Notes under the pieces: generated by a model
Seen by the model: only the letters and a program-made list of their open reading frames with translations
What the model was told of the DNA's origin: nothing
Database searches by the model: none
DNA from: Minisyncoccota bacterium
GTDB lineage: Bacteria > Patescibacteriota > Minisyncoccia > Phycocordibacterales > UBA9973
Direction: 5' to 3'
Length of the DNA: 64,000 bases
Assembly (NCBI GenBank): GCA_041659205.1
Contig: JBAZYS010000003.1
Span: forward strand, 3,266 to 67,265
In this document: piece after piece, positions 12,839 through 28,955 of the stretch
Position numbering within the stretch: position 1 is the stretch's first letter
Layout of the letters: each line of letters opens with the position of its first letter
Made by a program: the position numbers and the translations under genes

Positions 12839-13702
12839 TTAAATAAGTGAATTGTAGGAATCTCTGCGACGATTTCTCATAAAACCCCACTCTTTTTCTA
12901 TAATTTTATTACTAGTTATATCAATTTTAGAAATTAAAACTTCATCTTTTGACATTCCTGCCCTTTTAATTATTTTGCCAAAAGCATCGGAAATAAAGGA
13001 CTGTCCCCAAAATTTTAATTTATCCTCCACTCCTGTCCTATTTACAGCGACGACATGTAAACTATTCGCTATCGCATGCCCACGCATTACTGTCTCCCAT
13101 GCATTATGCCAATCTCCTTCTTTTTGTTGTTCTCCTTTTATAATTCCAATTGCAGTAGGATAAAAAATAATATCAGCTCCGGCAAGCTTTACTGCACGTG
13201 CTGCTTCTGGAAACCATTGATCATAACAAATAAGAACTGCGAAAATGGCGTATTTAGTCTTATAAATTTTGTACCCGCCATCACTTTCTTTAAAATAATT
13301 TTTCTCATAAAAAAGAGGGTCTTGAGGTATGTGAATCTTTCTGTAAGTTGGCATTAATTTTCCATCAGTATTTATTACCACCGCTGAGTTATGAAAATGC
13401 CCTATTTTATCTTTCTCAAAGATTGGTACAATGATTACCACTTCATATTTCTTTGCAATTAAAGAAAACATTTTAGTTGATTCACCTGGAATTGTTTCCG
13501 AAAAATCATCTTTTTTTGCATTTTTATATTGAGGAAAATATATGGTTCTATAAAGCTCTTGCAGGCAAATAATCTGGGCACCTTTTTTCGCTGCCTGTTC
13601 TACTAGTTTTACAGTCTTTAGCAGATTAAAATTCATGTCTTTAGACACGGAAGTTTGAATCGCAGCAATTGTAACAAATTTATTTTTCATTTTGTTGGTC
13701 AT
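12839..13702 (-). CDS. aguB: N-carbamoylputrescine amidase (carbon-nitrogen hydrolase / nitrilase superfamily)
   Basis: 287 aa; the E-K-C catalytic triad context (ICLQELY ... LICYDQWFPE) is typical of CN hydrolases; directly downstream of aguA. Confidence 0.75.
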   Translation of the reverse strand: MTNKMKNKFVTIAAIQTSVSKDMNFNLLKTVKLVEQAAKKGAQIICLQELYRTIYFPQYKNAKKDDFSETIPGESTKMFSLIAKKYEVVIIVPIFEKDKIGHFHNSAVVINTDGKLMPTYRKIHIPQDPLFYEKNYFKESDGGYKIYKTKYAIFAVLICYDQWFPEAARAVKLAGADIIFYPTAIGIIKGEQQKEGDWHNAWETVMRGHAIANSLHVVAVNRTGVEDKLKFWGQSFISDAFGKIIKRAGMSKDEVLISKIDITSNKIIEKEWGFMRNRRRDSYNSLI

Positions 13703-14321
13703 TGTTGAAATATAACATATTTACAATTATTTTACGATATAAGATAAAAATTATAATTACATTTACTATAACCAAATATAGACTAAAACTATAAATAGTA
13801 AAACTCCAATCCTTAATTATGAACAAGGCTAAAACATTATTTATAACACCCGGTAAATAAACTGATACTGTTTCGGTCTCTGGAAATTTCCAGGATTTTA
13901 CAATTGTTGGCACTGAGGCTAAACCATCACTCAAAATTGCAAAAAGGATAGATATTCCTAAATTGTGAGTAAGTGTATAAAGTACTAAAGCTAACAATGC
14001 AAATATTCCGCAAAATATATCTAAATTAGTAATTTTGAAATAAGCATTTTTTTTCCAAAAGGAAACGATTATTACCACAAGAGGACCAAATCCTGCCATA
14101 AATATAGGTAACACCGAGAGTCCTGCTCCAGCTTTTAATTGAAAGAATGCTCCGATAAAAGGAGCCAGCATCCAAATAAACCAAGAGACTAGATTGGGTC
14201 TAGTCTGTCCAAAAAGCATATCCTTTAAATAAAAGAAATATCCGAGTAGGCTTATAAGAATCGTAATGTAAATTATATTTTCGGGAATCATATTATTTAA
14301 TAAACCTCTTGTTGGTAACAC
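13680..14321 (-). CDS. Hypothetical polytopic membrane protein
   Basis: 213 aa with about 6 predicted TM helices; overlaps the stop of the upstream Cys-rich gene by 25 bp (operonic). Confidence 0.45.
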   Translation of the reverse strand: MLPTRGLLNNMIPENIIYITILISLLGYFFYLKDMLFGQTRPNLVSWFIWMLAPFIGAFFQLKAGAGLSVLPIFMAGFGPLVVIIVSFWKKNAYFKITNLDIFCGIFALLALVLYTLTHNLGISILFAILSDGLASVPTIVKSWKFPETETVSVYLPGVINNVLALFIIKDWSFTIYSFSLYLVIVNVIIIFILYRKIIVNMLYFNNDQQNEK

Positions 14322-16000
14322 TTCTCACAATACACTACTTCTGGTCGATCAGGGGCATAGGAGGTTCTAATTGATTTACCGCATTTCATACATTCGCGGT
14401 CATATAATTTTGGCATTTGAAGTTTCTCAAAACGAGACTGTTCTCTACATTTCAAACACCTATCAGGAAGTGGTATGTTCATCTTACGAAGAAGATCGAA
14501 TTCTAAGCCAGAAATTTTATATCTTCTATCACAATTTAGACAAGAAATCACTTCCTTTAAAATAGAATCATTTACCTCCGTAATGGTTTCTGGCAAAGTA
14601 CTACCAGAAATTGTTGCCTCAACCTGCTGTTCTATTTCGTCATTCCAAGAATACCCGCATTTTAATGCTTCTTCCTTTGTCTTGGTGAAGAATTTATGAG
14701 CATTAGAATTATTATAGGCGAATTTACTAAATCCTGGTTGAAAAAATTCTCCATAAGGCCAAGACCTACCCAATTCATCTATATACGGATTATTTTTCAT
14801 ATCTTCAATAATTTGTTCCTTTAGTTTTAAATATACTTCTTTTGTATATTGTTTATTTAAAATACTATAGCCTTTTCTTTTTAAACTTGAACAACCAAAA
14901 TTATTTTTTGATTCTATGCACCATAAACAATACTCGGAGTTCACCACATCAGGGAAACAATAGGTAGAAAATTTGGAATTACTAACATTGTTACCAAGGG
15001 CTGTTGATTCATAAATAAGTTCTGCTACATGACCCCAGCCAGAATAATCCATACAATCGGCTATTGGTGACACTGTTATAAATTGACACCATTTACTGTT
15101 TTCTGCCTTACTTGCAATATAAATTTCTTTTGAATTCTTAGAATTAAATACATACTCTCCAGTAACATTTAAATTTAAGGAATGCCCAGTATAAAATCTA
15201 TAAGGATGTTCCAACCAAAATTTTTCAGCTTCTTTTCTAACTTTTTTAATACCCGAACGTGTATCTAGTTTTAGTTCTTTTAATTTTTTAAAATATTCCT
15301 CTTTAGAATATTGAGCATTGAATATCTTATAAGAAGACCCACTCAAGTTCACACACCCAACACAATTCATGCATCCGTAACAATTGCGAGAAAACCACAC
15401 TTCCGTACAGGCATCACATTCTTGGGAATAAAAAACACGATAACAATCATTTTGTCCAATACTCTCATAGCAAAGCTCTGATTTAAATATTCTAAGCGAA
15501 TCAGCTGTATCCTTTACTGTATTTAGAAAAGAAGAGTTACAAACATTTTCACAATAATCTGCCCAAATTGTCATAATACAATTTTTTGAAAAGGCGAGCG
15601 AGTTGCTGTAATCACAATTATTTAATGTAAGATATTCAGTTTCAAGGGCAGTTTGTGGAGTTTTTTCTGTAAGTTCTTTTAATTGAGCTAAAAATGGCCT
15701 ATTGGGATCATAATCCATAGCGTATTCTGTTCCGTCCCAACTATCTCCCCACCAACAAGGCTGACAATAAACGGTGATTTTTTGTGAAGGTGAATATATA
15801 GAAAGTGTTCTTTTTCCACACTTATCGCAATTTCTATAAAAAAGAGACCAAGCGTTCATACAGGCTAAACGCCTAATCATCCTACACTCTCCACACCAAG
15901 TTGGCGGTGGAACTTTTATCTTTTCATAAAAATTAAAATCTTCGACTTCTATCGTGAAGTCTTTTTTGCAATTCTGGCAACTTTTTATTTCTGCTTTCAT
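14297..16000 (-). CDS. Cysteine-rich multi-zinc-ribbon protein, paralog A (novel family)
   Basis: 567 aa, about 40 Cys, no signal peptide; N-terminal CQNCKKDF...FYEKIKVPPP.WCGECR and C-terminal CLNCDRRYKI...KMNIPLPDRCLKCR share the same motif; two internal repeats each end in NC..C..C.GC... + Y.I.N.QYSKEEY..LK; C-terminal YCEKCYQQEVY. Confidence 0.7.
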   Translation of the reverse strand: MKAEIKSCQNCKKDFTIEVEDFNFYEKIKVPPPTWCGECRMIRRLACMNAWSLFYRNCDKCGKRTLSIYSPSQKITVYCQPCWWGDSWDGTEYAMDYDPNRPFLAQLKELTEKTPQTALETEYLTLNNCDYSNSLAFSKNCIMTIWADYCENVCNSSFLNTVKDTADSLRIFKSELCYESIGQNDCYRVFYSQECDACTEVWFSRNCYGCMNCVGCVNLSGSSYKIFNAQYSKEEYFKKLKELKLDTRSGIKKVRKEAEKFWLEHPYRFYTGHSLNLNVTGEYVFNSKNSKEIYIASKAENSKWCQFITVSPIADCMDYSGWGHVAELIYESTALGNNVSNSKFSTYCFPDVVNSEYCLWCIESKNNFGCSSLKRKGYSILNKQYTKEVYLKLKEQIIEDMKNNPYIDELGRSWPYGEFFQPGFSKFAYNNSNAHKFFTKTKEEALKCGYSWNDEIEQQVEATISGSTLPETITEVNDSILKEVISCLNCDRRYKISGLEFDLLRKMNIPLPDRCLKCREQSRFEKLQMPKLYDRECMKCGKSIRTSYAPDRPEVVYCEKCYQQEVY

Positions 16001-16026
16001 GTTCCCGGAAGTGAGTTTTTAGATTG

Positions 16027-16293
16027 TTAAATTTTCGACTCGTTTTTTATATACTCTATAATTCTTCTTCTAAACATTCTTCTTCCTGTGCTTGTTTTTA
16101 AATACTTTTCGCGACGTTTAGCATCATTTTCGTTTAAACAAGCTTCGTAATATATCAATTTCCATGGTATATATCTTTTAGTCGAAAAATTTAACCCTTG
16201 ATTATGTTCTTTCAACCTACGCTTAAGATCTTTTGTATAACCAAAGTATAACTCATTATATGTTTTACTTTCTAAACAATAAATATAGAACAT
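16027..16293 (-). CDS. GIY-YIG nuclease-superfamily small protein (YhbQ/UPF0213-like)
   Basis: 88 aa; FYIYCLE...LYFGYTKDLKRRLKEHN is the classic GIY-YIG signature. Confidence 0.7.
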   Translation of the reverse strand: MFYIYCLESKTYNELYFGYTKDLKRRLKEHNQGLNFSTKRYIPWKLIYYEACLNENDAKRREKYLKTSTGRRMFRRRIIEYIKNESKI

Positions 16294-16320
16294 AATTTAT
16301 CTAAAAATCTACTTCCGGGT

Positions 16321-17193
16321 TCATATCCCTTCTTTTTTCAACTCTTCCAAGAGTTCACGGGCTTTTTTAGAAATCTTACTAGGTATTTTTACTCTTATTC
16401 TTATGAGGAGGTTTCCAGTAGTTCCTCTCGAGGCCGCTTCCCCATAGCCTGTCATCTGAACAGTTTCTCCGTCTCTTATCCCGGCAGGAATATTTATTGA
16501 GACTTCTTCTTCACGACGAAGTACTCCTTTGCCTTTACATGTTTCGCATTTTTCTTTTGGCACTTCTCCTGCACCAAAACAAACTTCACAAGCTCTTGTG
16601 CTTCCAATGTTTCCAAAGATTGTTCTCTTTTGTTCGTGAATTTTACCTTGACCATTGCAATGTTTACAGGTTTCCATTTTAGAACCAGCTTTTGCCCCAG
16701 AGCCCTTACAAGTTAGACAAGTCGAGAGTTTAGTAAGTAAAATCTTCTTATTTACACCCAAGATAGAATCAGTAAGTAAAATTTGTATTTCAGTAGATAT
16801 GTCTCTGCCTCTTTTTGGCTGTGGCCTACCCCCACCCATGCCTCCACCACCTCCAAAAAAATCACTGAATATGTCATTCAAATTTCCGAAATCAAAATCA
16901 GCACTCTGATAAGCCCCTCCACCATTAAAATCAAAACCTCCGAAGCCTTGCGCACCTCCTCCATATCCGCCCGCTCCTGCACTTTCAAAGCCTGAACCAT
17001 ATTGGTCGTATTTTGAACGCTTAGCATCATCAGAAAGGACTTGATAAGCTTCATTCACTTTCTTAAACTCAACCTCATTACCTCCCTTTTTATCAGGGTG
17101 ATGTTTGTGCGCCAACTTATAAAAGGCCTTTTTAATTTCGTCTTTTGACGCACCTTTATTAACGCCTAAAATTTCATAATAATCCTTGCTCAT
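16321..17193 (-). CDS. dnaJ: Chaperone DnaJ (short form with truncated C-terminal domain)
   Basis: J domain with HPD (KLAHKHHPDK), G/F-rich linker, four CxxCxGxG zinc-finger repeats; 290 aa. Confidence 0.85.
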   Translation of the reverse strand: MSKDYYEILGVNKGASKDEIKKAFYKLAHKHHPDKKGGNEVEFKKVNEAYQVLSDDAKRSKYDQYGSGFESAGAGGYGGGAQGFGGFDFNGGGAYQSADFDFGNLNDIFSDFFGGGGGMGGGRPQPKRGRDISTEIQILLTDSILGVNKKILLTKLSTCLTCKGSGAKAGSKMETCKHCNGQGKIHEQKRTIFGNIGSTRACEVCFGAGEVPKEKCETCKGKGVLRREEEVSINIPAGIRDGETVQMTGYGEAASRGTTGNLLIRIRVKIPSKISKKARELLEELKKEGI

Positions 17194-17202
17194 AAAGAAA
17201 AA

Positions 17203-18723
17203 CTATATCATGGGCTCCCCTTCTTGGGAAGCATTTATTTCATCATTTTCATTATCATTTTTTTCTTGTTCTTTTCTTTTATTTCTTCCTTCAATTATTG
17301 CTTTTTCTTCTACGCTTCGAATAATTGTGGCTTCTTCTTCGGCAATAAGCTTCGCTGCATCGTCCTTCGGTATTGAATATTTTCTGCGGGATGCGTCTAT
17401 AATCTCTTGCCTATACGAAGGATGGGTAGGTGCTAATACTCGAAGAGTCTCTGCAGAAAATGGGTCATAAGATTCCCCATCAATTGTCATTTTTATGTAA
17501 AATTCTGCAACTGCAAGATTTATCATATCTTTTACGTCGAAAACAGGCGCGAATTCCGGCTTTAATTTTACAGCATCCTCACCTCCAACACGGAAACAAA
17601 TCACACTTCCGACATTTCCAAGCACAGCCTGATAAACTTTGGGTATAATCTGTCCCACATATTGATGAGCAATTGTTAAATTCAATCCATACTTTCTAGC
17701 TTCAGATAAAATATTTTCAAAGGTTTGGGTAACGACATTTTGGAACTCATCCACATATAGATAAAAATCGGTGCGGTCTTTCTCCGGTATTGCTGCGCGC
17801 TCCATTCCGGCTTGTTTTATTTTCGTCAAAAATATAGAACCAAGGAAAGAAGAATTTTCTTCACCGAGCCTACCCTTAGAAAGATTAATAAAAATTATTT
17901 TTCCTTCATTCATTAATTTACTAATATCTATTTTATTTTGTTTCTGGCCGAAAATATTTCGAAGCAGTGGGTCAGAGAGGAATTGACCAAGCTTATTAAC
18001 GAGCGGAATAATGGCATCTGTGTCGAATTTCTCAGACCAGTCAGCGAATTCAATAGCGAAGAATCTCTTCACCATGTCATCTGTAATGTACTCCACTACT
18101 TTCTGTCTGTAATTTCTATCAGTTAACATTGAAATCATCCCACGCATTGTGGCATGAGGATAATCCAGGAGTGCTAGACAAGTAAAACGAAAAACGTGTT
18201 CGAGACGAGGTGTCCAGTTTGCTCCGAATTGTTTCTGGAAAACTTCGATGAGCCCTTGAGTAAGTTGAAACTTAAACATTGGGTCAACATTTGCAAGTGG
18301 ATTAAAGGATGCGGGAAAATCGATATCTGCAGGGTCGATAATGCAAACATCTTCAATGCGTTCCTTCGGAATATAGTCGAGCATTGCATCTATCACGTCA
18401 CCGTGGGGGTCAATCAAACACAAGCCATGACCATACGACACATCTTGGCGTATGAAAAGTTCAAGAAGTTTTGTTTTACCGACGCCCGACTTGCCTATTA
18501 TGTATAAATGCCTTCGGCGGTCTACTCGCTTAATACCGAAAACAAATTTCTTTTCTTCCAGAGAAGCTACGTAGTTCGTTCGTCCAATAAAAGACACGTC
18601 TTCTGGCTTTACCTTTCCGAAGACTGGCAATTCTGGTGGCGGCGGAGCATATTTTATTATTTGTACTCGATTAGGCTTTGCCATATATTCCTTTATTTTA
18701 CTACAATTTTCCCCTACTTTCAA
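17203..18723 (-). CDS. Soluble FtsK/HerA-superfamily P-loop ATPase (VirD4/VirB4/HerA-like), paralog 1
   Basis: 506 aa; Walker A YIIGKSGVGKT; DPHGD 25 aa downstream; Walker B YLYVDEFQN; SEARKYGLNLTIAHQYVGQ motif; no TM segments. Confidence 0.65.
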   Translation of the reverse strand: MKVGENCSKIKEYMAKPNRVQIIKYAPPPPELPVFGKVKPEDVSFIGRTNYVASLEEKKFVFGIKRVDRRRHLYIIGKSGVGKTKLLELFIRQDVSYGHGLCLIDPHGDVIDAMLDYIPKERIEDVCIIDPADIDFPASFNPLANVDPMFKFQLTQGLIEVFQKQFGANWTPRLEHVFRFTCLALLDYPHATMRGMISMLTDRNYRQKVVEYITDDMVKRFFAIEFADWSEKFDTDAIIPLVNKLGQFLSDPLLRNIFGQKQNKIDISKLMNEGKIIFINLSKGRLGEENSSFLGSIFLTKIKQAGMERAAIPEKDRTDFYLYVDEFQNVVTQTFENILSEARKYGLNLTIAHQYVGQIIPKVYQAVLGNVGSVICFRVGGEDAVKLKPEFAPVFDVKDMINLAVAEFYIKMTIDGESYDPFSAETLRVLAPTHPSYRQEIIDASRRKYSIPKDDAAKLIAEEEATIIRSVEEKAIIEGRNKRKEQEKNDNENDEINASQEGEPMI

Positions 18724-18747: not shown

Positions 18748-20418
18748 CTAGTAAACCTCTTTTTGATAGCATTCTGTACAATACATTATCGGAGCAACAT
18801 CCTCGGTCAAATTTGTGTGAGTTTCTTTCCCACAATTAGAGCATTTACGAACAAAAAACTTAAATGATCCCCGACGGCGAATACGGTCATGATGTCTGCA
18901 GTAAAAACATTGACGTGGAATTGGCAATACCATCTTTTTATAAAAAATATATTCTTGTTCGGTAATTTTATAATTTCTTTCGCAAGAAGTACATTTTAAT
19001 ATTTCATGTATGATTGAATCATCTATATCTTTAATATGATCTGGGATATTTTCAGATAATAGTGTTTCTTTGCCTTTAGTTGTTTGAATGTCATCTTCCC
19101 ATCGGAAACCTTGTATAAGTGCTTCATTTTTAGTTAAAGGCAAATTATCTTGAGCGATTGTTTCATTATAAGCAAAAGGTGCAATATTTGGTGGCATCAT
19201 TAAACCATGAATTCCAAGCATTATTAATTCATCTATTATGTGTTTTTTTAGCTCTTCGTATTCATCTTTTGAATATTCTTTATTAAAGATAGAATAACGT
19301 CCATTCCTTAAAGCATCGCATCCTATGCAATCGTGACAATTTCTTATTTCAAATGAATATAAAATATTACTACAATTTTCAGGCCAATAAGAACCTATCA
19401 CGTTGCTACAGTATCCAGTAGCAACCACTTCAAGCAATAATTCTGATTGAGTTCCATAGCCGATAGTTCCCAGAGAATCCTTTATGTTTTTAGAGGAAAA
19501 AAGATACCTTGAATTTTCCCCTTTTGAAACTTCGAATGAATTATAAACGTTCTTGCACTCCGTCAAATAGTCTCCTATCGAATTTACCGTCTTTAGATTA
19601 TTATTTTCTCTTCTTGGAAGAGTTTTAGAAAATTCAATAAACTTCTTTTTTGCTTCTTCAGTTTTTTTATAACTCCCTTTTATCTCCTGAATTCTTTTTT
19701 GATATTCATCAGCACTTAGTTGTTCATTAAAATAACAATTGCTTTTATTTCTTAAATTTACACAACCAAAACAGTTTGTAAGCCCACTACCATTCAAGAT
19801 AAAAGATGAGTCTACGCAACTCGTAACATTTTGACTCCATAATACGCTAGCAGATTCTTGAACATTTATGCATTCATAACAGCGTTCAAAATTAACTCCA
19901 AAATATATATCTGAGGAATCCAACCCTTTTTTAACACCCCTTGAATAGAGGAGGTCTTCTGATGGACTGGTATTAAAAACTAAGTAACAATTTCTACAAC
20001 CACCAGCCATATTAGTATATTCACTATTAATATTGGGTCCATCACCAGAAGAAATGCCTAAATTTATTTTAGGAACTTTAATTAAAAATTCCCCCATTTG
20101 GTCAAAAAAAGGGCGATTTTTATCATATTCCGTAGCATAATCTTTCGGGTCCCATTTTTCAGAGTAAAAACAGTCATAACAATATTTTTTGTATGATGAT
20201 TTTGGATTATACATTGTGATAATATGTTTCTGACATAAATCACATTTTTGCCCAGAATATAATGTGGTCTCGTTTCTCCACATTGCACGCATCTTAAAAC
20301 GACAATCAGGACAAACTTTCGGCACTGGTACTTTCATTCTTTCGTAAAATGAAAAATCATCCATTTCTAAGGTGAAATCCTGTTTGCAATTCTGACAATT
20401 TCTCGTTTCATTTCGCAT
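18748..20418 (-). CDS. Cysteine-rich multi-zinc-ribbon protein, paralog B
   Basis: 556 aa; same architecture as paralog A (CQNCKQDF...FYERMKVPVP..CPDCR; internal Y.IFNKEYSKDEY; C-terminal YCTECYQKEVY). Confidence 0.7.
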   Translation of the reverse strand: MRNETRNCQNCKQDFTLEMDDFSFYERMKVPVPKVCPDCRFKMRAMWRNETTLYSGQKCDLCQKHIITMYNPKSSYKKYCYDCFYSEKWDPKDYATEYDKNRPFFDQMGEFLIKVPKINLGISSGDGPNINSEYTNMAGGCRNCYLVFNTSPSEDLLYSRGVKKGLDSSDIYFGVNFERCYECINVQESASVLWSQNVTSCVDSSFILNGSGLTNCFGCVNLRNKSNCYFNEQLSADEYQKRIQEIKGSYKKTEEAKKKFIEFSKTLPRRENNNLKTVNSIGDYLTECKNVYNSFEVSKGENSRYLFSSKNIKDSLGTIGYGTQSELLLEVVATGYCSNVIGSYWPENCSNILYSFEIRNCHDCIGCDALRNGRYSIFNKEYSKDEYEELKKHIIDELIMLGIHGLMMPPNIAPFAYNETIAQDNLPLTKNEALIQGFRWEDDIQTTKGKETLLSENIPDHIKDIDDSIIHEILKCTSCERNYKITEQEYIFYKKMVLPIPRQCFYCRHHDRIRRRGSFKFFVRKCSNCGKETHTNLTEDVAPIMYCTECYQKEVY

Positions 20419-20419
20419 G

Positions 20420-22597
20420 TTATTCTAGAATTTTTCTTAATACATCTTCGGGCACCTCCTTTGTTGTTGGTTTTTGAGGTATTGGCATTGGAGTTGGTGT
20501 AGGAGTAGGAGTAGGTGTTGAAATTGGAGTTGAAATTGGGGCTGGAGTTGGAGTTTTTTGCGAAATCAAATCTTTTAATTTATTCATCTCGTCTACACCT
20601 GCAGAACGGTCATTACGAGGAATAAAACTCCCACCAGATGGACTGGCAAGTTTATTTTCTTCTTGCTTGATTTTATCTTTTAACGTATCGAGAGAAACGG
20701 GTTCAGGTGTAGGAATCTTAACTGGAATAGGAATTGGAGGTGAAATTACTGGACTTACCTCCTGATTTTGCAAAGTTTTATTCAAAACTTCTCTTAAGGC
20801 TGAATTATCCACTTTTTTAGGAATCTCAGCTTTAGTCTTAACAACTTTTACAGTAGGAACAAAAACTTTTTTAATCGTCCCAATTATTCCTGGTTTACCC
20901 GCCAAAAAGGAGGGCTTTGATACTGAAGAAACTTGCTTAAATGCTGGTATAGGAGGTTTCGGTACGAAAGCAGGTTTCGGTGTAGGTTTTTCTACTCTTT
21001 CTGGATATCTATTATTTTCTTCAACTTTTTTACCTTTTTGCTCAAATTCTATTCCTAAATCAGCTAATGGTTTAAAAAATTTAGATTCATCATAATTTAT
21101 TTGGTCTTGTCCTTTTTTTTCTACCTTTACCTCTCCAGATTTTATTTTTGCAATACATTCCTTACAATAGACTGCTCTACCTGGTTCTGGTTTAAACGGC
21201 ACAGTCTTCTCTAGTTTACAAAGTGAACAAATAACTGGAAATTTTTCCATACTTGAAGAAGAAGCGGATTCATTAAAACCTCCAAGTGACATTCCACTCC
21301 AATCATTAATTTCTCTCTCCACTACTCCTCTTGGCTTACAATAAAGAGCTCGAGAAGAGTTTATAACTGCATCTTCGATTTTCTTGTCACCAGACTTTAC
21401 CATTGGCGGAAGTGTCTTCGCAGAAAATGGTCTAGACGTCACACCATCAATCATTAATTTCAAATAAATTTTATAGTTCGGTAAATTTACAATATCTGAA
21501 GGAGTAAATTCTGGATCAAATTCTTTTTCCAAAAAGTCTGCATCGTCAGAACCGACACGAAAGACAATCATCGTACCCACGTTTCCGAAAACAGCATCTC
21601 GTACTGCAGAACTCTTGTCCACGACAAGCTGGGCTGTGTACTGGTGGGCCACAGTAAGGTTCAATCTGTATTTTCTAGCCTCAGACAAAATACCTGCAAA
21701 AGCATCCGTCACGAAATTTTGAAATTCGTCGACATATAGGTAAAAGTCCTTACGATGATCCTCAGGAATACGCACGCGCTCCATGGCGGCAAGCTGAATC
21801 TTGGTAATAATCATTCCACCCAAGAGGCCGGAATTGTCTTCACCAATGCGCCCCTTAGAAACGTTCACCAGAAAAATCTTCCCATCGTTCATAATGTCGA
21901 AAATATTGATAGTACTTAAAGATTGACCGACGACGTTGCGGATGATAGATGTAGAGAGAAATTGCCCAACTTTATTTTGAATCGGAGCAATTGCCTCATT
22001 TCTAAATTTATCTTGCCAAGCTTCGTATTCGTGAATCCAAAAAGCCTTGATAACTGGATCTTTTAAATTCGCAATTATTTTCTGACGATAATCTTTATCA
22101 ACTAGCATCCTAGGAATACCTAATAGTGTCGTTCCCGGAGTATCAAGCAAAGCTAGAATACAATTATTTAAAATATATTCCATTCGAGCACTCCAGGCAT
22201 TCGCCCAAATTTTAGTAAAAATTCCCATCAGTCCCGAAGCTACGAGATGCTTGTATTGAGGGTCAATAAGTTCAAGAACATTAAAACCTATATGATGTTC
22301 AGTGTCAGCTGGGTTGAAATAAACTACATCCTTAATGCGCTCTGGTGGAATAGAAGACAGAACTCCCTCAACGAGCTCTCCGTGCGGGTCAACTACGCAG
22401 ACCCCTTCGCCATTCTGGATGTTCTGAATAATCATGTTGAACATAAGCACAGATTTACCTGTACCTGACTTTCCGAGAATATAAACATGCTGGCGTCTAT
22501 CCTTGCGTTTTATGCCGAAGAGCTGATTTTTATCACGAAAAGTAGTAAGACCCAGATAGGTAACATCTTTATTTATAGGTATTTCTGGAAGTTCCAT
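20420..22597 (-). CDS. Soluble FtsK/HerA-superfamily ATPase, paralog 2, with C-terminal zinc ribbon and Pro/Thr-rich disordered tail
   Basis: 725 aa; Walker A YILGKSGTGKS, DPHGE, YLYVDEFQN, ARKYRLNLTVAHQYTAQL; then CSLCKLEK...P.P..AVYCKECIAK (a zinc ribbon resembling the Cys-rich proteins' C-terminus) and TPTPAPISTPISTPTPTPTP low-complexity. Confidence 0.65.
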   Translation of the reverse strand: MELPEIPINKDVTYLGLTTFRDKNQLFGIKRKDRRQHVYILGKSGTGKSVLMFNMIIQNIQNGEGVCVVDPHGELVEGVLSSIPPERIKDVVYFNPADTEHHIGFNVLELIDPQYKHLVASGLMGIFTKIWANAWSARMEYILNNCILALLDTPGTTLLGIPRMLVDKDYRQKIIANLKDPVIKAFWIHEYEAWQDKFRNEAIAPIQNKVGQFLSTSIIRNVVGQSLSTINIFDIMNDGKIFLVNVSKGRIGEDNSGLLGGMIITKIQLAAMERVRIPEDHRKDFYLYVDEFQNFVTDAFAGILSEARKYRLNLTVAHQYTAQLVVDKSSAVRDAVFGNVGTMIVFRVGSDDADFLEKEFDPEFTPSDIVNLPNYKIYLKLMIDGVTSRPFSAKTLPPMVKSGDKKIEDAVINSSRALYCKPRGVVEREINDWSGMSLGGFNESASSSSMEKFPVICSLCKLEKTVPFKPEPGRAVYCKECIAKIKSGEVKVEKKGQDQINYDESKFFKPLADLGIEFEQKGKKVEENNRYPERVEKPTPKPAFVPKPPIPAFKQVSSVSKPSFLAGKPGIIGTIKKVFVPTVKVVKTKAEIPKKVDNSALREVLNKTLQNQEVSPVISPPIPIPVKIPTPEPVSLDTLKDKIKQEENKLASPSGGSFIPRNDRSAGVDEMNKLKDLISQKTPTPAPISTPISTPTPTPTPTPMPIPQKPTTKEVPEDVLRKILE

Positions 22598-22636
22598 ACA
22601 TGTAAATTATACCTCGAAATCAGTTTTTTCCAAACC

Positions 22637-23599
22637 TTATTTGTCTTTGTAAATATCTCTTACTTGACCTGTATGTGGATCAAAAGCTCCCCTATTTTTA
22701 CTAAAAATATCAAATGCTGGATCCTTTTTCTTTACAAAAGAATCGACTAACTTAAAATCGTTCGGATGATCTTTCAAAAAACTTTCAGGATTTGTGAAAT
22801 ACTCTGCACAAATTTCAGCCCAGTATTCATGTGCTGCTCTTAATAATCCATCCCTTGTTCCGTTCAAATGTGGTAAATAATCAGAATTTATATCATCTTT
22901 ACCAAAAGCATCAGGAGCCATGAGCCTTTTATGAACTTCTAGCAATTGAGTTTGCCTTTCTAAAATATTTAAATTTATATCACTGTCCCAATCATTAGCA
23001 TGGGCAAATTCGTGCGCAATCGTAGTATTGTCTACTGGTATTGTGCCACCACTCAATTCTGGATTGGTGTATAAATAAACATTGCCTCCCTGAAAACCAC
23101 CAAGTTTACTATGCCCTCTTGAGGTTTCTTTAATAGAAGAAATAAATTTTATTTGTTTAATTTGTCCAGAAATCCATCCTTTAGGATAAGCTCCGTATTT
23201 TTCTGTGAATAAATACTTAGGTTCAACGGAAAAATTTTTTCCCTCAAACCCTTTTAGTTCAGGATCTTTTTTTTCTTCTTTGTTTTGAAAATATGCATTC
23301 TGGTCTCCTTCATTTATTTGACTCACAGCGCCATAACCAAAAATTTTTTTAATTTCTGTCTCGTTTGTTTCTTTTTGTTTCAATTGTTCTGGATTAAAAG
23401 AGGATGTGATATGTCTATTATATTCAATATCTTTATTTACAGATTTTACTGCTTCACCTGCAACAAAAAGAGCCCCGGCCGCAAGACCAACTTTACCAAT
23501 CTTCTTAAAACAAACCAAAGATTTACCGAATATATTTTCGGCCTGTTTTTGTGGATCTTCTTCTTTTTTATCAATAGATCTAGTTCCTTCAAGGTTCAT
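22637..23599 (-). CDS. Membrane-anchored putative zinc metallopeptidase (HExxH zincin)
   Basis: 320 aa; N-terminal TM (VGLAAGALFVAGEAV); HEFAH motif (TIAHEFAHANDWD) plus downstream AAHEYWAE; no closer family recognised. Confidence 0.45.
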   Translation of the reverse strand: MNLEGTRSIDKKEEDPQKQAENIFGKSLVCFKKIGKVGLAAGALFVAGEAVKSVNKDIEYNRHITSSFNPEQLKQKETNETEIKKIFGYGAVSQINEGDQNAYFQNKEEKKDPELKGFEGKNFSVEPKYLFTEKYGAYPKGWISGQIKQIKFISSIKETSRGHSKLGGFQGGNVYLYTNPELSGGTIPVDNTTIAHEFAHANDWDSDINLNILERQTQLLEVHKRLMAPDAFGKDDINSDYLPHLNGTRDGLLRAAHEYWAEICAEYFTNPESFLKDHPNDFKLVDSFVKKKDPAFDIFSKNRGAFDPHTGQVRDIYKDK

Positions 23600-23633: not shown

Positions 23634-23660
23634 AAAAAGCCCCATTGTAAACAATGGGGC
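23634..23660 (-). terminator. Rho-independent terminator 5 bp after the dnaK stop
   Basis: Hairpin gccccattg-taaa-caatggggc with a T-run on the minus strand. Confidence 0.7.
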
Positions 23661-23669
23661 TTTTTGTAA

Positions 23670-25568
23670 TTAAACTTTTGGAGCTTCTTCTTCTCCTTCA
23701 GTTTTCTCTTTTACTTCCGCAGCTTGCTCTTCTGGAGCACTTGCTCCTGGAGCCTCTGCGCCGGCACCGGCCTTAGATACGGCTTCGCCAATCTTAGACA
23801 TCTCTGTTGAGAGTTCTTCGGTAGCTTTCTTTATCGCCTCACCGTCAGTACCATCTTTTACTCCACGGAGAGCAGTGATTTTTGCATTAACTTCATCTTT
23901 CAATTCTGCAGGAATTTTAGCTTCATTATCTTTCAATGTTTTCTCCGCAGTGTAGATAATCATTTCCGCTGTATTTTTTATATCAACAACTTCCTTTTTC
24001 TTTTTATCTTCTTCTGCATGAAGTTCAGCGTCAGCTTGCATTTTTTTAATTTCTTCGTCCTTAAGACCAGAACTTGCTTCAATCTTAATTGACTGACTTT
24101 TACCTGAAGCTTTATCCTTTGCAGTAACATTCAAGATCCCGTTCGCATCGACGTCGAAAGCGACTTCAATCTGTGGCATACCACGAGGTGCTGGTGGAAC
24201 TCCATCCAAGATAAATCGTCCTAGGGATTTATTGTCGGAAGCCATTGGGCGTTCACCTTGAACTATATGAATTTCAACAGAAGTCTGATTGTCCGCAGCC
24301 GTAGAAAATACTTGCGATTTTGAAGACGGAATAGTGGTATTTCTTTCAATTAATTTTGTTGCTACTCCTCCTAATGTCTCAATACCTAATGATAGAGGTA
24401 TAACATCAAGAAGAAGAACATCACGCACATCACCAGCGAGCACTCCTGCCTGCACTGCAGCACCGAGAGCCACAACTTCATCAGGATTGATGGACATATT
24501 TGGAGCCTTGCCGAAAAGAGTCTGCACCGCAGAAACTATCGCTGGCATTCTCGTCTGACCACCTACCATAATGATTTCATTGATGTCATTCATTTTAAAT
24601 GGTGAGGCGGCGAGAGCTCTCTTTGTAATTTCAATTGAGCGATCAATGTATTCCTTTGCAAGAGATTCGAGCATCGCCCGAGTCATTTTCAAAAGTAAGT
24701 GCTTTGGCCCTGATGCATCAGAAGTTATAAATGGAATATTTATTTCAGTTTCCATGGTTGTAGAAAGTTCGTGTTTCGCTTTTTCTGCTGCTTCTTTTAG
24801 TCTCTGATGAGCTAGAGGATCCTTAATAACATCAATCCCTGACTCCTTTTTGTATTCATCCGCGATCCAAGAAATAATTTTTCTATCGATGTCTCCTCCG
24901 CCCATGTGACTGTCTCCATCTGTAGACTTTACTTCTATGACATCATCACCTATCTCTAGAACAGACACGTCAAAAGTACCTCCACCGAAATCGTAGACGA
25001 CAATCTTTTCATTTTTCTTTTTATCGAAACCATAAGCGAGCGCTGCTGCAGTTGGTTCATTGATAATACGCTTCACATCGAGGCCAGCAATAGCTCCTGC
25101 ATCCTTAGTAGCTTTTCTTTGAGCATCGTTGAAATATGCGGGAACGGTAATGACAGCTTCAGTAATCTTTTCACCAAGCTTTGCCTCCACATCTGTTTTA
25201 ATTTTTTGCAAAATCATCGCAGAAATTTCTTCTGGACGATAAAATTTATCTGTCATTTTCACCTTTACTCCACCCCCATCCCCAGCTTCAATTTTAAATG
25301 AGGCTGTTTGTCTATCCTTCTGTACTTCTGGATCATCAAAACGATGCCCCATGAAGCGCTTCATTTCCGCAATCGTATTTTCTGGATTTGTGACTGCTTG
25401 CCTCTTCGCAAGTAAACCGACGATACGGTCACCATTTTTTGCAGTCGCCACCACAGAAGGGGTCGTGCGATTACCTTCGACATTTTCAATAATCTTTGGT
25501 GCGCCTCCTTCAATGAAAGCGACAGCCGAATTTGTTGTACCTAAATCTATTCCTATTATTTTGCTCAT
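23670..25568 (-). CDS. dnaK: Chaperone DnaK (Hsp70)
   Basis: 632 aa; [18 protein letters not shown], and a full NBD plus SBD. Confidence 0.95.
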
Positions 25569-25655
25569 ATTTTATATGGTTATTTTATAATTTAACTTAT
25601 ATTTCGCGACCACTAATTATTTGTATAAAAGTAGTATATATGATAGTATGTAGTC

Positions 25656-26192
25656 ATGTCAAGAAAAGTAGACTATTCAAAGAAAATACTTAAGGTTTTA
25701 GGTGAAAAATCGGCTATTTCCCTACCTGAATTGATAGATAGAATAAGCCCCGAAGAGTGCTCCCAAAGCTCTAAATACGCCCTTACGCGCTCTTTAAAAG
25801 GTCTTCGAGATGCTGGCCTCATCGAACAAATACCATCCTCCCAGAACGAATATGCCAGGCTAACTAAAGAAGGTAGAAAAAAAATGAATAGCCTAAAACT
25901 AGATAATAACACCACTTTGGTAAATACTTCTTGGGATGGTTTTTGGAGGATAATTCTTCTCGACCTCCCAGAGAACAGAAAAGCAGAACGAGAGAGCTTA
26001 CGTTACCTTTTAAAAAAAGCGGGCTTCATATGTTTAAAAAATTCTGCCTGGATTTCCCCTTTCCCATACGAACACTTATTTACAAATATTAAAAAAGATC
26101 TAGGGCTAACTACAGAAATGATGATTATTGTCACTGAAAATATAGACGAGGAGAGCAAAAAAGTTTTATTTAAAACTTTCGGAACCCGGTAG
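25656..26192 (+). CDS. Winged-helix transcriptional regulator, PaaX-like family
   Basis: 178 aa; N-terminal wHTH resembling the PaaX N-terminus; divergently transcribed from dnaK. Confidence 0.5.
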   Translation: MSRKVDYSKKILKVLGEKSAISLPELIDRISPEECSQSSKYALTRSLKGLRDAGLIEQIPSSQNEYARLTKEGRKKMNSLKLDNNTTLVNTSWDGFWRIILLDLPENRKAERESLRYLLKKAGFICLKNSAWISPFPYEHLFTNIKKDLGLTTEMMIIVTENIDEESKKVLFKTFGTR

Positions 26193-26253
26193 TAGAGCTT
26201 TGCGATATGTGAAGCATGCATCTAAGGATGCCTCGCAAAGTCTCACTACCGGG
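26185..26253 (+). other. Long imperfect stem-loop (about 21 bp stem) overlapping the regulator stop codon
   Basis: cccggtagtagagctttgcga ... tcgcaaagtctcactaccggg with about 2 mismatches. Confidence 0.4.
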
Positions 26254-26272
26254 GAAAATAAAATTTACATAT

Positions 26273-26288
26273 TTACGCCATGGCGTAA
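26273..26288. promoter_or_regulatory. 16 bp perfect palindrome TTACGCCATGGCGTAA (operator-like), copy 1
   Basis: Perfect dyad; part of a ~38 bp direct repeat whose second copy is at 26696-26733. Confidence 0.5.
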
Positions 26289-26296
26289 ATATGTAT

Positions 26297-26602
26297 TTAG
26301 GTAATATTTTTCGTCATCCATTCTTTATAGGCGCGATTAATTCTTCGCACATCAACTCCAGCGATAAGTGGCGTGGAATAACTATGATGTTTAGAAACTA
26401 AATCATTCACTTCTTCGAGCTTGGATTCAAGAGTGGTCACCATGAGCATCGTCTGGGATACTTCTTTTAATCCCCCTTCCCAGTTATACATAGAATCGAT
26501 AGCCCAATAATCTACACAGACACCGAGCTTTTTGTCTATGATTAGTTTCCCTAAAAGTTGTGCTTCGATAGAATTCGCGCAAGTTGTATATATAAATACC
26601 AT
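26297..26602 (-). CDS. cutA: Divalent-cation tolerance protein CutA
   Basis: 101 aa; CutA1 fold signature (VFIYTTC...AQLL, SMYNWEG). Confidence 0.7.
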   Translation of the reverse strand: MVFIYTTCANSIEAQLLGKLIIDKKLGVCVDYWAIDSMYNWEGGLKEVSQTMLMVTTLESKLEEVNDLVSKHHSYSTPLIAGVDVRRINRAYKEWMTKNIT

Positions 26603-26696
26603 AAAATTAGAGTACGATATTTGATAAACAGAATAGCCCGACCTTTATAGTATTATACTCCTTTTATAATAAACTAGGATATTCTTATATTCCAAT

Positions 26697-26712
26697 ATAC
26701 GCCATGGCGTAT
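26697..26712. promoter_or_regulatory. 16 bp perfect palindrome ATACGCCATGGCGTAT, copy 2, about 90 bp upstream of the cutA start
   Basis: Perfect dyad sharing its 14 bp core TACGCCATGGCGTA with copy 1. Confidence 0.5.
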
Positions 26713-26719
26713 ATGTGTA

Positions 26720-28390
26720 TTAAGCCATATTTTGTTTATAACATTCTTCGCAAGCAATTTTTTGGTATTCCCATTCCGGTAAATAATATGCCTCAATGTC
26801 CTTTTTACAATAAAAACAAGAGTATGGATACGCCTGAAGAGCCGTCAAATACTTTAATTGATTTCTTGTTCGTACGTCAAAATGATATCGTGGAAGTGGG
26901 ATACTATTTTCTTTATAGAATATCAATTCATTTTGTGCAATATTAAAACGCCAATTAGATTTTGGGCAGATAAGTGCTTGATTAATAATAGAATCTGAAA
27001 CATCTTTTATATCGTCAGGTAATTCATTTGTTTGCATTCCTTCAATATTACTTTCATCAACATCTTCCCAATAACCACCCAGCCTTAAAATATCTTCTTT
27101 TTTTGTATCTCCAAAATACAAATAACTAGTAGAAAAATTAAATGATCCAGCGCTCATTGAATATGGCAAAAACTTTCCATATTCCCCATTTTTTTTCATA
27201 TTTGAAATAATTTTATTTTTCAAAATTTCATATTCCTCTTTACTATATTGCTTATTTAAAATACAATATTTCTTTTTCTTTATACCAACACAACCAAAAC
27301 AATATTCACATTCAGTACAAATGTCTAAATATTCGGAATATCTTGAAGAAGACCAAACACTGTATTTTTCTGCATAACCATACAGGCAACAACTACAATT
27401 TCCAGATAATTCAGTAAACCAGCAACCATCAGCGTCGATATTAGACTTTTCGTTAATGCCCCTAATGCAGTTATGACAATCTTCAGAATTGCTGATGGTG
27501 TTGCAATTGTGGCAATTTTTACAATCTAATAAATAATCTCCATCAGAACTATATATTTTAAAATTAAAATTTTCCCTATGAACAACTTCATTTTTTATTA
27601 TTTCATCAAAACGTTCTTTAAAAGATTGTATAGATTCATAAGATCCAAGATTAAATGATTTTAATTTTTCTTCATATTCTTCCTTGGTGTATTGCTTATT
27701 TTCTATGCAATATTGTTTATTACGTAGATTCCAACTCATGAAACAATTCTGGCAATTTCTACAATCATATAAAAAGCTTGATTCTATACAATCACGAGAA
27801 TGCTTTGAATAAAAAAGTTTATAAGAATGATGACAATCTGAGCAGTCAAAACTTTTTTCACAACTAAAACATATTGTCATATCTATAGAATTTTTTACAT
27901 AAAAACCTCTATATGAATAAAACAAATCTTCACATTGTTCCAACGAACGTGATAAATAACAATTTTTAGAATTCCAGACATCATCACACCAATCACATTT
28001 TATGTTTTTAGTACCATTCTGATGTGGATGAGGAACACGCTCTTGAAGATCTTGCAATTGTTTAAAAAATAGTTGATTCTCATTATATTCTACTCCATAA
28101 TCCATAGCGTCCCATTTATCGCTGTACCATTCCTTAGAAGTATAAATAGGATATCTATTTTTCTCTGGTAAAACTGTAATTAAGCCTTCTCCTGATAAAT
28201 CTGATTTCCCTTTACGAAATTTTCCAAACATCCAGAATGATAAATGTAATTTAACACGGCAAAAAAAACACAAAATGGGTAATTCAATATCAACTTTTTG
28301 ATATAAAGAAAATTCCTCTTCTGTAATTATGAAGTCTTTTTTACAATGTTCACAAATTCTATTCTCCTTTTTCTTTGAATTCATACACAT
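26720..28390 (-). CDS. Cysteine-rich multi-zinc-ribbon protein, paralog C
   Basis: 556 aa; CEHCKKDF...; internal duplicated module with YCIENKQYTKEEYEEKLK and YCILNKQYSKEEYEILKNK; overlaps the grpE stop by about 30 bp. Confidence 0.7.
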   Translation of the reverse strand: MCMNSKKKENRICEHCKKDFIITEEEFSLYQKVDIELPILCFFCRVKLHLSFWMFGKFRKGKSDLSGEGLITVLPEKNRYPIYTSKEWYSDKWDAMDYGVEYNENQLFFKQLQDLQERVPHPHQNGTKNIKCDWCDDVWNSKNCYLSRSLEQCEDLFYSYRGFYVKNSIDMTICFSCEKSFDCSDCHHSYKLFYSKHSRDCIESSFLYDCRNCQNCFMSWNLRNKQYCIENKQYTKEEYEEKLKSFNLGSYESIQSFKERFDEIIKNEVVHRENFNFKIYSSDGDYLLDCKNCHNCNTISNSEDCHNCIRGINEKSNIDADGCWFTELSGNCSCCLYGYAEKYSVWSSSRYSEYLDICTECEYCFGCVGIKKKKYCILNKQYSKEEYEILKNKIISNMKKNGEYGKFLPYSMSAGSFNFSTSYLYFGDTKKEDILRLGGYWEDVDESNIEGMQTNELPDDIKDVSDSIINQALICPKSNWRFNIAQNELIFYKENSIPLPRYHFDVRTRNQLKYLTALQAYPYSCFYCKKDIEAYYLPEWEYQKIACEECYKQNMA

Positions 28391-28955
28391 TCACCCGGGC
28401 TGGGCGCATGACGCGTTCGCCTAGCTTATAACCCTTCTGAGTTACAGTGGCTACCTTATGTTCTAATTCTTTTCTGTCTGTTTCTACAACATCTATAGAC
28501 TGATGAATACTAGGATCAAAACTCTCCCCCACTTCTCCGACGGGCTTTACTCCATATTCCTCGAATATTCCGTTCATCTGTGCATAAATATATTCCACAC
28601 CTTTGCGCCAATTATCTTCTACTTTTTCCCAAGCATCTTTGTTTGCAAAAGCCATATTAAAACTATCAATCACAGAAAGAAAACGAGTAAGAATTCTCTC
28701 ACGCATCGCTTCTGAAAAAATAGCTTTTCTCTCATCTTCTTGTTTTCTATAGTTAGCAAATTCTGCTCGCTCCTTCTGCCAGCCAGTCAAATACTCTTCC
28801 TTTTCTTTCTTGAGCTCTTTTATATCCGCTCTAAATTTCTTTAAAGTTTTCTTCAAATCCTCTTCCCCGTCTTCATTGAATTCAAATTCAAGAACCTCGG
28901 AATCATCCTTTTTTTCCTCAAGATTATCTTCTTTTTTAATTTCTTCATCTGCCAT
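28359..28955 (-). CDS. grpE: Nucleotide exchange factor GrpE
   Basis: 198 aa; coiled-coil N-terminus and GrpE C-terminal beta domain. Confidence 0.85.
   Translation of the reverse strand: MADEEIKKEDNLEEKKDDSEVLEFEFNEDGEEDLKKTLKKFRADIKELKKEKEEYLTGWQKERAEFANYRKQEDERKAIFSEAMRERILTRFLSVIDSFNMAFANKDAWEKVEDNWRKGVEYIYAQMNGIFEEYGVKPVGEVGESFDPSIHQSIDVVETDRKELEHKVATVTQKGYKLGERVMRPARVNVYEFKEKGE

Follow-up and report, generated by a model that had tools for sequence, protein, structure and literature searches.

Cysteine-rich zinc-ribbon proteins and soluble coupling-protein-like ATPases among the Hsp70 genes of a Paceibacteria genome

Genes and transcription signals of the locus

The DNA analysed here is a window of 64 kb (the whole stretch, 64,000 nucleotides) from a metagenome-assembled genome of Paceibacteria, a lineage of the candidate phyla radiation (CPR), in which three genes for cysteine-rich proteins (CysA, CysB and CysC) and two genes for FtsK/HerA-superfamily ATPases (ATP1 and ATP2) lie among the Hsp70 genes grpE, dnaK and dnaJ. 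CysA and CysB match WC847_02015 and WC847_02035, from a 'Candidatus Paceibacterota' assembly, at 100% identity. A preliminary description of the region 13680-28955 had listed its genes, there with the names ATPase-1 and ATPase-2 and Cys-rich paralogs A, B and C, and had suggested that they might form an undescribed chaperone-linked system. Here we examine this suggestion together with related loci, which are denoted by L and a number.

All 13 open reading frames (ORFs) of that description were recovered at their given coordinates, its gene spacing was confirmed, and family matches were obtained for DnaK, DnaJ, GrpE, CutA1, PaaX_M and GIY-YIG. Along the minus strand the order is grpE, CysC, cutA, dnaK, a protein with an HEFAH motif, ATP2, CysB, ATP1, dnaJ, a GIY-YIG protein, CysA and a protein with seven transmembrane (TM) segments, and a PaaX-like gene lies on the plus strand between cutA and dnaK (Table 1). 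The grpE and CysC genes overlap by 32 nt and the genes of CysA and the membrane protein by 25 nt, while ATP2 is separated from CysB by 1 nt and ATP1 from dnaJ by 9 nt. The gap between CysB and ATP1 is 24 nt with the TTG start of ATP1 and 63 nt with the ATG at Met14; because every homologue covers 97% of the query, we suggest Met14 as the true start.

Table 1. Features of the locus, in minus-strand order
Feature	Positions	Strand	Basis and remarks
grpE (198 aa)	28359..28955	-	NCBIfam GrpE models, E 2e-27; after rplM-rpsI
CysC, cysteine-rich paralog C (556 aa)	26720..28390	-	alignment, tblastn; overlaps grpE stop
cutA (CutA1 family, 101 aa)	26297..26602	-	PF03091, 78.6 bits, above Pfam cut-off
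Terminator-like hairpin after cutA	26266..26295	-	13-bp stem, then T-rich tail
PaaX-like regulator	25656..26192	+	PF20803 PaaX_M, 69.6 bits, above cut-off; divergent from dnaK
Promoter-like site before dnaK	25633..25662	-	TTGACA-18-TATACT; 11/12 consensus matches, best of region
dnaK (632 aa)	23670..25568	-	TIGR02350, 908.5 bits vs cut-off 822.55
Intrinsic terminator after dnaK	~23634..23665	-	GCCCCATT-loop-AATGGGGC then TTTTT; read from sequence
HEFAH-motif protein (320 aa)	22637..23599	-	variable slot; relatives have unrelated small ORFs there
Promoter-like site before ATP2	22606..22633	-	TTGGAA-16-TATAAT; 10/12 matches, consensus only
ATP2, soluble T4CP-like ATPase (725 aa)	20420..22597	-	TrwB_AAD_bind 41.5 bits, DUF87 31.6 bits, zf_Tbcl_2 40.7 bits
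ATP2 zinc ribbon CxxC-x17-CxxC (aa 451-484)	21146..21247	-	PF23477 E 1.9e-10, 40.7 bits (cut-off 27); TIGR04272 41.3 (cut-off 36)
CysB, cysteine-rich paralog B (556 aa)	18748..20418	-	alignment, tblastn; variable slot between ATP2 and ATP1
ATP1, soluble T4CP-like ATPase (506 aa, probable start Met14)	17203..18723	-	acidic tail, end EEP[LM]I
dnaJ, short form (290 aa)	16321..17193	-	TIGR02349, 281 bits vs 377; profile positions 1-272 of 354
GIY-YIG domain protein (88 aa)	16027..16293	-	PF01541, 62.5 bits, above Pfam cut-off; variable slot
CysA, cysteine-rich paralog A (567 aa)	14297..16000	-	alignment, tblastn; variable slot after dnaJ
Seven-TM membrane protein (213 aa)	13680..14321	-	seven hydrophobic segments; conserved backbone after dnaJ

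The genes had been described as co-directional, which is true of all except the PaaX-like gene, but this is not a special property of the locus: between 11810 and 54044 the minus strand carries every called gene, tightly spaced, save the PaaX-like gene and a tRNA-Tyr gene (47943-48026), so shared orientation says little here. Likewise, operonic spacing had been taken to imply co-expression with the heat-shock chaperones, an implication that the signals around dnaK do not support. The terminator previously noted after dnaK is present as a hairpin with a T-run, dnaK also has a promoter-like site of its own, and a second terminator follows cutA. Promoter and terminator calls are consensus matches, and on sequence grounds the stretch would comprise at least three units: rplM-rpsI-grpE-CysC-cutA, dnaK alone, and ATP2-CysB-ATP1-dnaJ onward.

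The cysteine-rich family and the two ATPases

Full-length identity among the three cysteine-rich paralogs is 29-34% (tblastn E 1e-62 to 1e-95), in agreement with the ~560 residues and ~30-35% identity given before, and tblastn found no further copies of this family or of the ATP1/ATP2 family in the window. We gathered 170 full-length copies from related loci and used them to define the family anatomy, with sites numbered as in CysB. Over ~560 residues, a pair of zinc ribbons (zf_Tbcl and CxxC-x17-CxxC) is followed by two beta-solenoid segments and then by a second such pair. The median cysteine count is 35 per protein. Most of the four-cysteine sites are very strongly conserved, with C8/11/36/39 at ~100%, C526/529/547/550 at 99% and C476/479/504/507 at 90-99%, and C59/62/80/83 is conserved at 67-83%. 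This last ribbon, the second, is intact in only about two thirds of the copies and therefore seems dispensable; CysC has lost the cysteine ligands of ribbons 2 and 3. A further CxxCxxCxxC cluster at 210-219 is 78-98% conserved, and Q107, D170, N231, D317, N379, Y382 and a YGEFFP motif are nearly invariant. Every copy ends in VYCExCYQQEV-x, six residues past the last cysteine.

An internal duplication is evident in this architecture: the two ribbon pairs, N-terminal and C-terminal, are homologous to each other (hhalign, E 2e-28), and so are the first and second central segments (E 1e-36). The earlier statement that the family fits no described domain holds for its core (~residues 90-470, ~400 aa), for which searches of Pfam, NCBIfam and PDB and fold comparison returned no significant family or fold match, and 55 family members had no consistent weak Pfam match to it. 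It does not hold for the terminal fingers, which alone are recognised, by zf_Tbcl_2 (PF23477) in 40 of the 55 members and zf_Tbcl (PF13451) in 32; CysA, at 26.7 bits, falls just under the PF23477 cut-off of 27. A PDB sequence search with the cysteine-rich proteins gave only LIM-type zinc-finger noise. The AlphaFold2 model of CysB has a mean predicted local distance difference test score (pLDDT) of 80.5 and a predicted template modelling score (pTM) of 0.84, and model confidence is only moderate for the solenoid core and for some regions of ATP1. Among known folds, beta-solenoid proteins such as the spruce budworm antifreeze protein, curli CsgA and left-handed beta-helix acyltransferases are a close class for this core. 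The fingers share their four-cysteine spacing and motif with TIGR04272, PF23477 and PF13451, and zinc binding by the CxxC-x17-CxxC type of domain was demonstrated experimentally in small proteins of Methanosarcina; there the finger is a stand-alone small protein, whereas here two finger pairs cap the undescribed core (PMC12704099). The family is thus real and its core undescribed; the types of its terminal domains are known, as is the superfamily of its partner ATPases. As a domain architecture for use in annotation, the duplicated solenoid with a treble-clef zinc-finger pair at either end is new.

At E<=1e-30, a HMMER search of 1.84 billion representative sequences yielded no fewer than 2,216 clusters at 50% identity, all 545-600 residues long; one is labelled Peregrinibacteria. 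Taxon labels on many of the MAG records are unreliable, and those of some loci, such as 'Saccharibacteria', 'Burkholderiales' and 'Gammaproteobacteria', seem generic or mis-binned and were excluded when inferring range. One homologue, P0469 (731 aa, with an Arg/Gly/Pro-rich composition unlike that of CPR proteins), has a GNAT acetyltransferase domain fused before the cysteine-rich core and has had most of its zinc-ribbon ligands replaced, so that the core occurs without the fingers and possibly outside CPR. No account of the family was found in the literature searched. A phage origin was rejected, as IMG/VR viral contigs contain no relative of the family, and so was identity as a defence system, as PADLOC gave no match to the cysteine-rich proteins and no specific match at all. 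No TM segment or signal sequence is predicted in CysA, CysB, CysC, ATP1 or ATP2, and by this prediction the cysteine-rich proteins are cytoplasmic. We also considered whether they might be exported disulfide-rich proteins with thiol-disulfide oxidoreductases as neighbours and rejected this, as DsbA, DsbB, DsbD, VKOR and redoxin genes are sporadic (1-5 of 89 loci each).

ATP1 and ATP2 are 45% identical to one another, and their previous assignment to the FtsK/HerA superfamily is well supported. Both score above the Pfam cut-offs for TrwB_AAD_bind, T4SS-DNA_transf, DUF87 and TraG-D_C, and both have the FtsK/HerA-type nucleotide-binding domain, Walker A and B motifs and profile matches by which type IV coupling proteins (T4CPs), coupling ATPases of type IV secretion systems (T4SSs), are recognised. 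The Pfam alignment spans the all-alpha domain (AAD) region, and the AlphaFold2 ATPase model has a helical insert at residues 148-258 (pLDDT 80-93). Neither protein has an N-terminal transmembrane anchor, their highest 19-residue Kyte-Doolittle windows being 1.36 for ATP1 and 1.13 for ATP2 against a threshold of 1.6. Because they match T4CP profiles and lack the anchor, we place them in the VirB4/T4CP/HerA branch as non-canonical members without the membrane anchor of coupling proteins. They thus resemble TrwB, VirD4, TraD and DotL with its adaptor complex in their profile matches, yet they are soluble, and no virB4, other T4SS or relaxase gene was found among the scanned ORFs of the window (including 20 further ORFs) or in the annotated loci. 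Within the HerA/VirB4/DndH(DptH) branch both match DUF87, but no NurA, Sir2, DUF4297 or dnd partners were seen, and with such conservation and universal presence in their clade the two genes look unsuited to a defence role. Only generic P-loop-level matches were given by PADLOC (mad8 at E 2e-14, HerA, DndH), and a PDB sequence search with ATP1 gave no match.

ATP2 shares a feature with the cysteine-rich proteins, in that its zinc ribbon is of the same domain type as their last ribbon. This ribbon is found in 13 of 13 ATP2 orthologues (53-75% identity). The long low-complexity, proline-rich tail of ATP2 ends in KEVPEDVLRKILE (20423-20461), as it does in 10 of the 13 orthologues (missing in L049, L055 and L080), and the EEP[LM]I end of ATP1 (17206-17223) is present in all orthologues examined. 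From their conservation, these C-terminal peptides look like putative docking peptides. The best 120 database matches of ATP1 are 83-94% identical, and across the same loci ATP1 is as conserved as DnaK (86-94% versus 80-90%; 94% versus 90% in L084).

Genomic context and candidate roles

In the window and nine related loci (L021, L029, L048, L071, L084, L087, L088, L089 and, in part, L041) the genes share a backbone of rplM-rpsI-grpE-[PaaX]-dnaK-ATP2-ATP1-dnaJ-membrane protein-cysS. What is conserved inside this clade is dnaK-ATP2-ATP1-dnaJ rather than the cysteine-rich genes. These are the variable part, with anything from none to three or more of them in a slot (behind grpE, between ATP2 and ATP1, or behind dnaJ), where an ABC transporter or an rsmE gene is sometimes present as well. 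CysC orthologues follow grpE with the same kind of overlap in L084 (-32) and L041 (-29), and follow ATP1 in L050 and L067. The CysA slot is filled in L021 and L029 and empty in L084, L088 and L089. The full backbone is kept in L088, where no cysteine-rich gene is found in 21 kb and the gaps are 53 nt (our ORF calls) or 71 nt (database calls) from dnaK to ATP2, 6 nt from ATP2 to ATP1, and 48 nt from ATP1 to dnaJ. The preliminary description had seen an ATPase plus cysteine-rich module occurring twice; the actual pattern is an ATPase pair flanking a slot with zero to three cysteine-rich genes.

The loci linked to dnaJ form one clade on a neighbour-joining tree of ATP1. In the sister clade and the outgroups, CutA or cysteine-rich genes adjoin ATP1 and no Hsp70 gene is in the locus, so the Hsp70 linkage is best explained as a single inherited rearrangement. 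Outside the clade the layout is a divergent NRAMP gene, then ATP1-(CysC)-CutA-small nucleotidyltransferase-(cysteine-rich)n-(membrane protein)-ATP2-lamin-tail-domain membrane protein-methyltransferase, whole in L001, L039, L050 and L067 and partial in L026, L040, L049, L055, L063, L074, L076 and L080; its stretch from ATP1 to ATP2 is complete in L049 too. No Hsp70 genes lie within 10 kb of such arrays in the other Paceibacteria examined. The cutA gene is directly 3' of ATP1 in L001, L026, L039, L040 and L049. In L001, L026, L039 and L067 a divergent NRAMP-type metal transporter flanks ATP1, with CutA and a ~145-residue cytidylyltransferase-like protein following, and NRAMP, CutA and the cysteine-rich proteins together are suggestive of a metal theme. 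In L065 a cysteine-rich array abuts a more distant ATPase (42% identity) with the same ribbon. Tandem runs reach eight uninterrupted genes (L055, with ten in the locus). Of the 71 places where one copy directly follows another, ten show an overlap of 4 nt and another ten one of 25 nt (L040, L055, L081, L083, L086 and others), and this recurrence suggests that the junction is conserved and that genes of an array are translationally coupled.

Neighbourhoods were counted in 80 loci seeded on the cysteine-rich family and holding 187 copies, with many of the loci sharing ancestry. An FtsK/HerA-superfamily ATPase lies within three genes of 43 of these copies, against a rough expectation of ~1.5% for two ATPase genes in a genome of ~800 genes (an assumed size). 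Only 11 of the 187 are within three genes of dnaK, dnaJ or grpE, all of them in the Hsp70-linked clade or in L027. The most recurrent genomic partner of the family is therefore the ATPase pair (with CutA), not the chaperones, and the association of cysteine-rich proteins with ATPases that had been noted at the window stands, although not as part of a chaperone-linked system. Database homologues are 64-82% identical to CysB and 62-79% to CysA, and for both paralogs the closest ones are mostly found in different housekeeping clusters. Seven look-ups of CysB homologues (66-82%) placed four, among them the closest (82%), amid Mur ligase genes, and one each after rpoB-rpoC-dnaG-rpoD, beside ribonucleotide reductase genes, and in a locus like that of the window; in at least eight genomes, CysA homologues (54-72% identity) have a pseudouridine synthase gene on one side and rplS on the other. 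Across the relatives, then, these genes are normally elsewhere and only sporadically near dnaK, the pattern that the preliminary description had itself named as refuting its proposal.

We also examined a third T4CP-like paralog, ATP3 (~910 aa, 42% identical to ATP2, without a zinc ribbon; L052 10385-13117 and L090-L169). Its position, downstream of a gene run with secY-adk-map-like sizes (assigned without a family search), is conserved in 80 metagenome loci with 51-100% identity, and Paceibacteria may thus carry three T4CP-like ATPases. Association of the cysteine-rich family with such ATPases is, by this ATPase-centred control, recurrent across three paralogs but facultative.

We tentatively favour a reading in which the cysteine-rich proteins are zinc-loaded adaptors or clients of soluble ring ATPases, in an association that would be facultative. 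It draws on gene neighbourhood and shared domains: arrays in several deep lineages have ATP1 and ATP2 at their ends, the finger of the family is also present in ATP2, and conserved terminal peptides are common to the three protein types. The terminal treble-clef fingers would bind a ligand, nucleic acid or protein, the duplicated solenoid would serve as a rigid body, and the old paralogs, each conserved, would provide different specificities. The ATPases could engage these proteins through the homologous ribbon of ATP2 and the conserved peptides that end their disordered tails, by analogy with T4CP tails that recruit adaptors. The Hsp70 genes would be neighbours by descent in one clade and not demonstrably part of the machine.

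Several observations weigh against this reading. The link is purely one of gene neighbourhood, and adjacency is weak evidence of function in compact co-directional genomes. The 80 loci were seeded on the cysteine-rich family itself and many are of common ancestry, while 77% of the family copies (144/187) are away from any ATPase. Both ATPases are kept in L088 without a cysteine-rich gene, T4CP-like ATPases are spread more widely across Patescibacteria than has been shown for the family, and with ATP3 as the seed a cysteine-rich gene is found just upstream in only 11 of the 80 loci, all in one subclade (>=73% identity).

A survey of Patescibacteria found 5,713 VirD4-like/T4CP homologues in 2,918 genomes, about two per genome, of which only 148 are near virB4, and its authors wrote that exaptation of the orphan homologues for another function 'cannot be ruled out' (PMC12102498). 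A bolder extension of our reading, which we consider unlikely as a whole, is that ATP1, ATP2 and the cysteine-rich family constitute an unrecognised cytoplasmic motor-plus-adaptor (or motor-plus-cargo) system, the function for which such homologues were exapted, and that it became genetically integrated with DnaK and DnaJ in one clade, possibly to handle or export metal-rich proteins.

The main alternative, if a somewhat doubtful one, is that the cysteine-rich proteins are independent cytoplasmic metal-binding proteins, with a structural, redox or enzymatic role and no tie to ATPases or chaperones, whose genes persist in strongly expressed housekeeping operons; the ATPase-flanked arrays would then be where the family first expanded. 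The many copies away from ATPases and the Mur ligase, RNA polymerase, ribonucleotide reductase, pseudouridine synthase-rplS and secY-adk-map settings are consistent with this, the nearly invariant residues and YGEFFP motif could belong to a site of catalysis or binding, and the CxxCxxCxxC cluster and the GNAT-fused homologue, with degenerate ribbons and an intact core, fit as well. However, no enzyme family or fold match was found for these proteins, and independence leaves unexplained the ATP1 and ATP2 genes that bracket arrays in several deep-branching lineages, the ribbon shared with ATP2 and the placement of the family beside three ATPase paralogs.

It is quite improbable that the cysteine-rich proteins are T4SS cargo (effectors) with ATP1 and ATP2 as their coupling proteins and DnaK, DnaJ and GrpE keeping the cargo export-competent in the clade of the window. 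The ATPases are T4CP-like by fold and Pfam, the cysteine-rich proteins are lineage-restricted, occur as multiple paralogs, lack a Sec signal and end in an invariant peptide, and the order dnaK-ATP2-ATP1-dnaJ is kept in one clade; in addition, the substrates of Patescibacteria T4SSs and the role of the T4CP homologues are unknown (PMC12102498). Nevertheless, the ATPases lack the canonical N-terminal anchor, no virB4 or other T4SS gene was found with them in the window or the related loci studied, few T4CP homologues in the survey are near virB4, and the T4CP of Southlakia is dispensable for epibiotic growth (PMC12102498). Each paralog is also strongly conserved in comparison with typically fast-evolving effectors, and folded multi-zinc proteins would be poor substrates for unfolded export. 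Type VII EssC/EccC genes beside arrays of substrate paralogs offer an analogy only, since EssC/EccC are membrane proteins with several ATPase domains and small helical WXG/LXG substrates, none of which is seen here.

The chaperone-linked system of the preliminary description, with cysteine-rich proteins and ATPases co-expressed with and dependent on DnaK, DnaJ and GrpE, now deserves little credence. Nine or more genomes keep the order grpE-[PaaX]-dnaK-ATP2-ATP1-dnaJ, several Hsp70-linked loci have ATP1-dnaJ gaps of 5-9 nt, the grpE/CysC overlap recurs in L084 and L041, and ATP1 evolves as slowly as DnaK. This conserved order, however, concerns the ATPases rather than the cysteine-rich genes, which vary within the clade and are missing in L088, and it probably reflects a single evolutionary event, as all linked loci fall in one clade of the ATP1 tree with no Hsp70 gene in the loci of its sister and outgroups. 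Moreover, dnaK has its own signals, the CysB and CysA homologues are mostly in other clusters, and with a ClpB/ClpC-type Hsp100 encoded in the window there is no need for the ATPases to replace a disaggregase. The premise that grpE, dnaK and dnaJ are contiguous in essentially all bacteria was likewise too sweeping; the grpE gene of E. coli, for example, is not linked to dnaKJ. Where CPR genomes are compact and co-directional, spacing like that of an operon beside dnaK is no sign of a chaperone-linked system.

That the cysteine-rich genes are selfish, mobile or defence genes inserting into operons is scarcely credible: their positions differ among close relatives, with 82%-identical proteins in different operons, the family is multi-copy, the -4 and -25 nt tandem overlaps recur and a GIY-YIG ORF adjoins CysA in the window and in L007, but the proteins have no nuclease or transposase domain, no PADLOC match and no IMG/VR relative, and the paralogs are well conserved across many genomes, some at a stable position in at least eight.

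The recurrent though facultative juxtaposition of the cysteine-rich family and the ATPases provides a concrete, testable candidate for what the orphan coupling-protein ATPases, about two per genome (PMC12102498), act on. Patescibacteria genomes are tiny, yet up to ten 1.7-kb genes in one Paceibacteria locus are given to this undescribed family.

Chaperone genes and other features of the locus

The Hsp70 genes have the same order and strand as in the Bacillus-type hrcA-grpE-dnaK-dnaJ operon. Unlike that operon, the locus has no hrcA or CIRCE, a divergent PaaX-like gene, a dnaK gene with its own promoter-like site and terminator, and two ATPase genes before dnaJ. A search of the whole window for CIRCE (TTAGCACTC-N9-GAGTGCTAA, with up to three mismatches allowed) gave no match, no hrcA was seen in the window, and CIRCE/HrcA control of the Hsp70 genes was therefore rejected. 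The PaaX-like gene is separated from dnaK by 87 nt, and the divergent pair is kept in L021, L041, L048, L084, L088 and L089. The PaaX-like protein is a candidate replacement heat-shock regulator.

The GrpE protein scores 96 bits against its best equivalog, below the cut-off of 137 yet specific, and its orthologues carry PF01025; rplM-rpsI-grpE is kept in L041, L048 and L088. DnaJ falls below the TIGR02349 cut-off because its C-terminal domain II is deleted in frame, with the J domain, G/F region and zinc-finger domain kept. Alignment with the 363-368-residue orthologues places the loss, of ~76 residues, between two similar GDL[YL]I[KR] motifs. The DnaJ proteins of L021 and L071 have a different, larger deletion that takes the zinc-finger domain too, and DnaJ thus appears, from these alignments, to be shrinking independently within the clade of the window. 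A ClpB/ClpC-type Hsp100 (900 aa; Clp_N, two AAA modules and ClpB_D2-small) is encoded at 48656-51358, on the same strand and 20 kb from the Hsp70 genes. With this gene present, a role of the ATPases as stand-in for a missing ClpB disaggregase was rejected.

The 'HExxH zincin' of the preliminary description has an HEFAH motif, but no Pfam, NCBIfam or PADLOC match supports the zincin label. The small GIY-YIG ORF lies between the shortened dnaJ and CysA, and similar ORFs adjoin the CysA orthologue in L007 and ATP3 in L119. The seven-TM protein gave no family match in Pfam or NCBIfam. Its orthologues come after dnaJ or CysA in L021, L029, L084, L088 and L089, and distant homologues (36-43% identity) lie on the opposite strand within the ATP1...ATP2 arrays of L026, L039 and L067.

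Elsewhere in the window, two proteins, one with Sigma70_r4 and HARE-HTH domains (42514-43578) and an unassigned one of 464 residues (41057-42451), have homologues directly upstream of ATP1 in L040 and L063, both deep-branching loci. The plus strand carries a cluster of four tRNA genes (Cys, Leu-taa, Lys-ctt and Leu-tag) at 55991-56595, where gene orientation flips, and the tRNA-Tyr gene, the fifth, is also on the plus strand.

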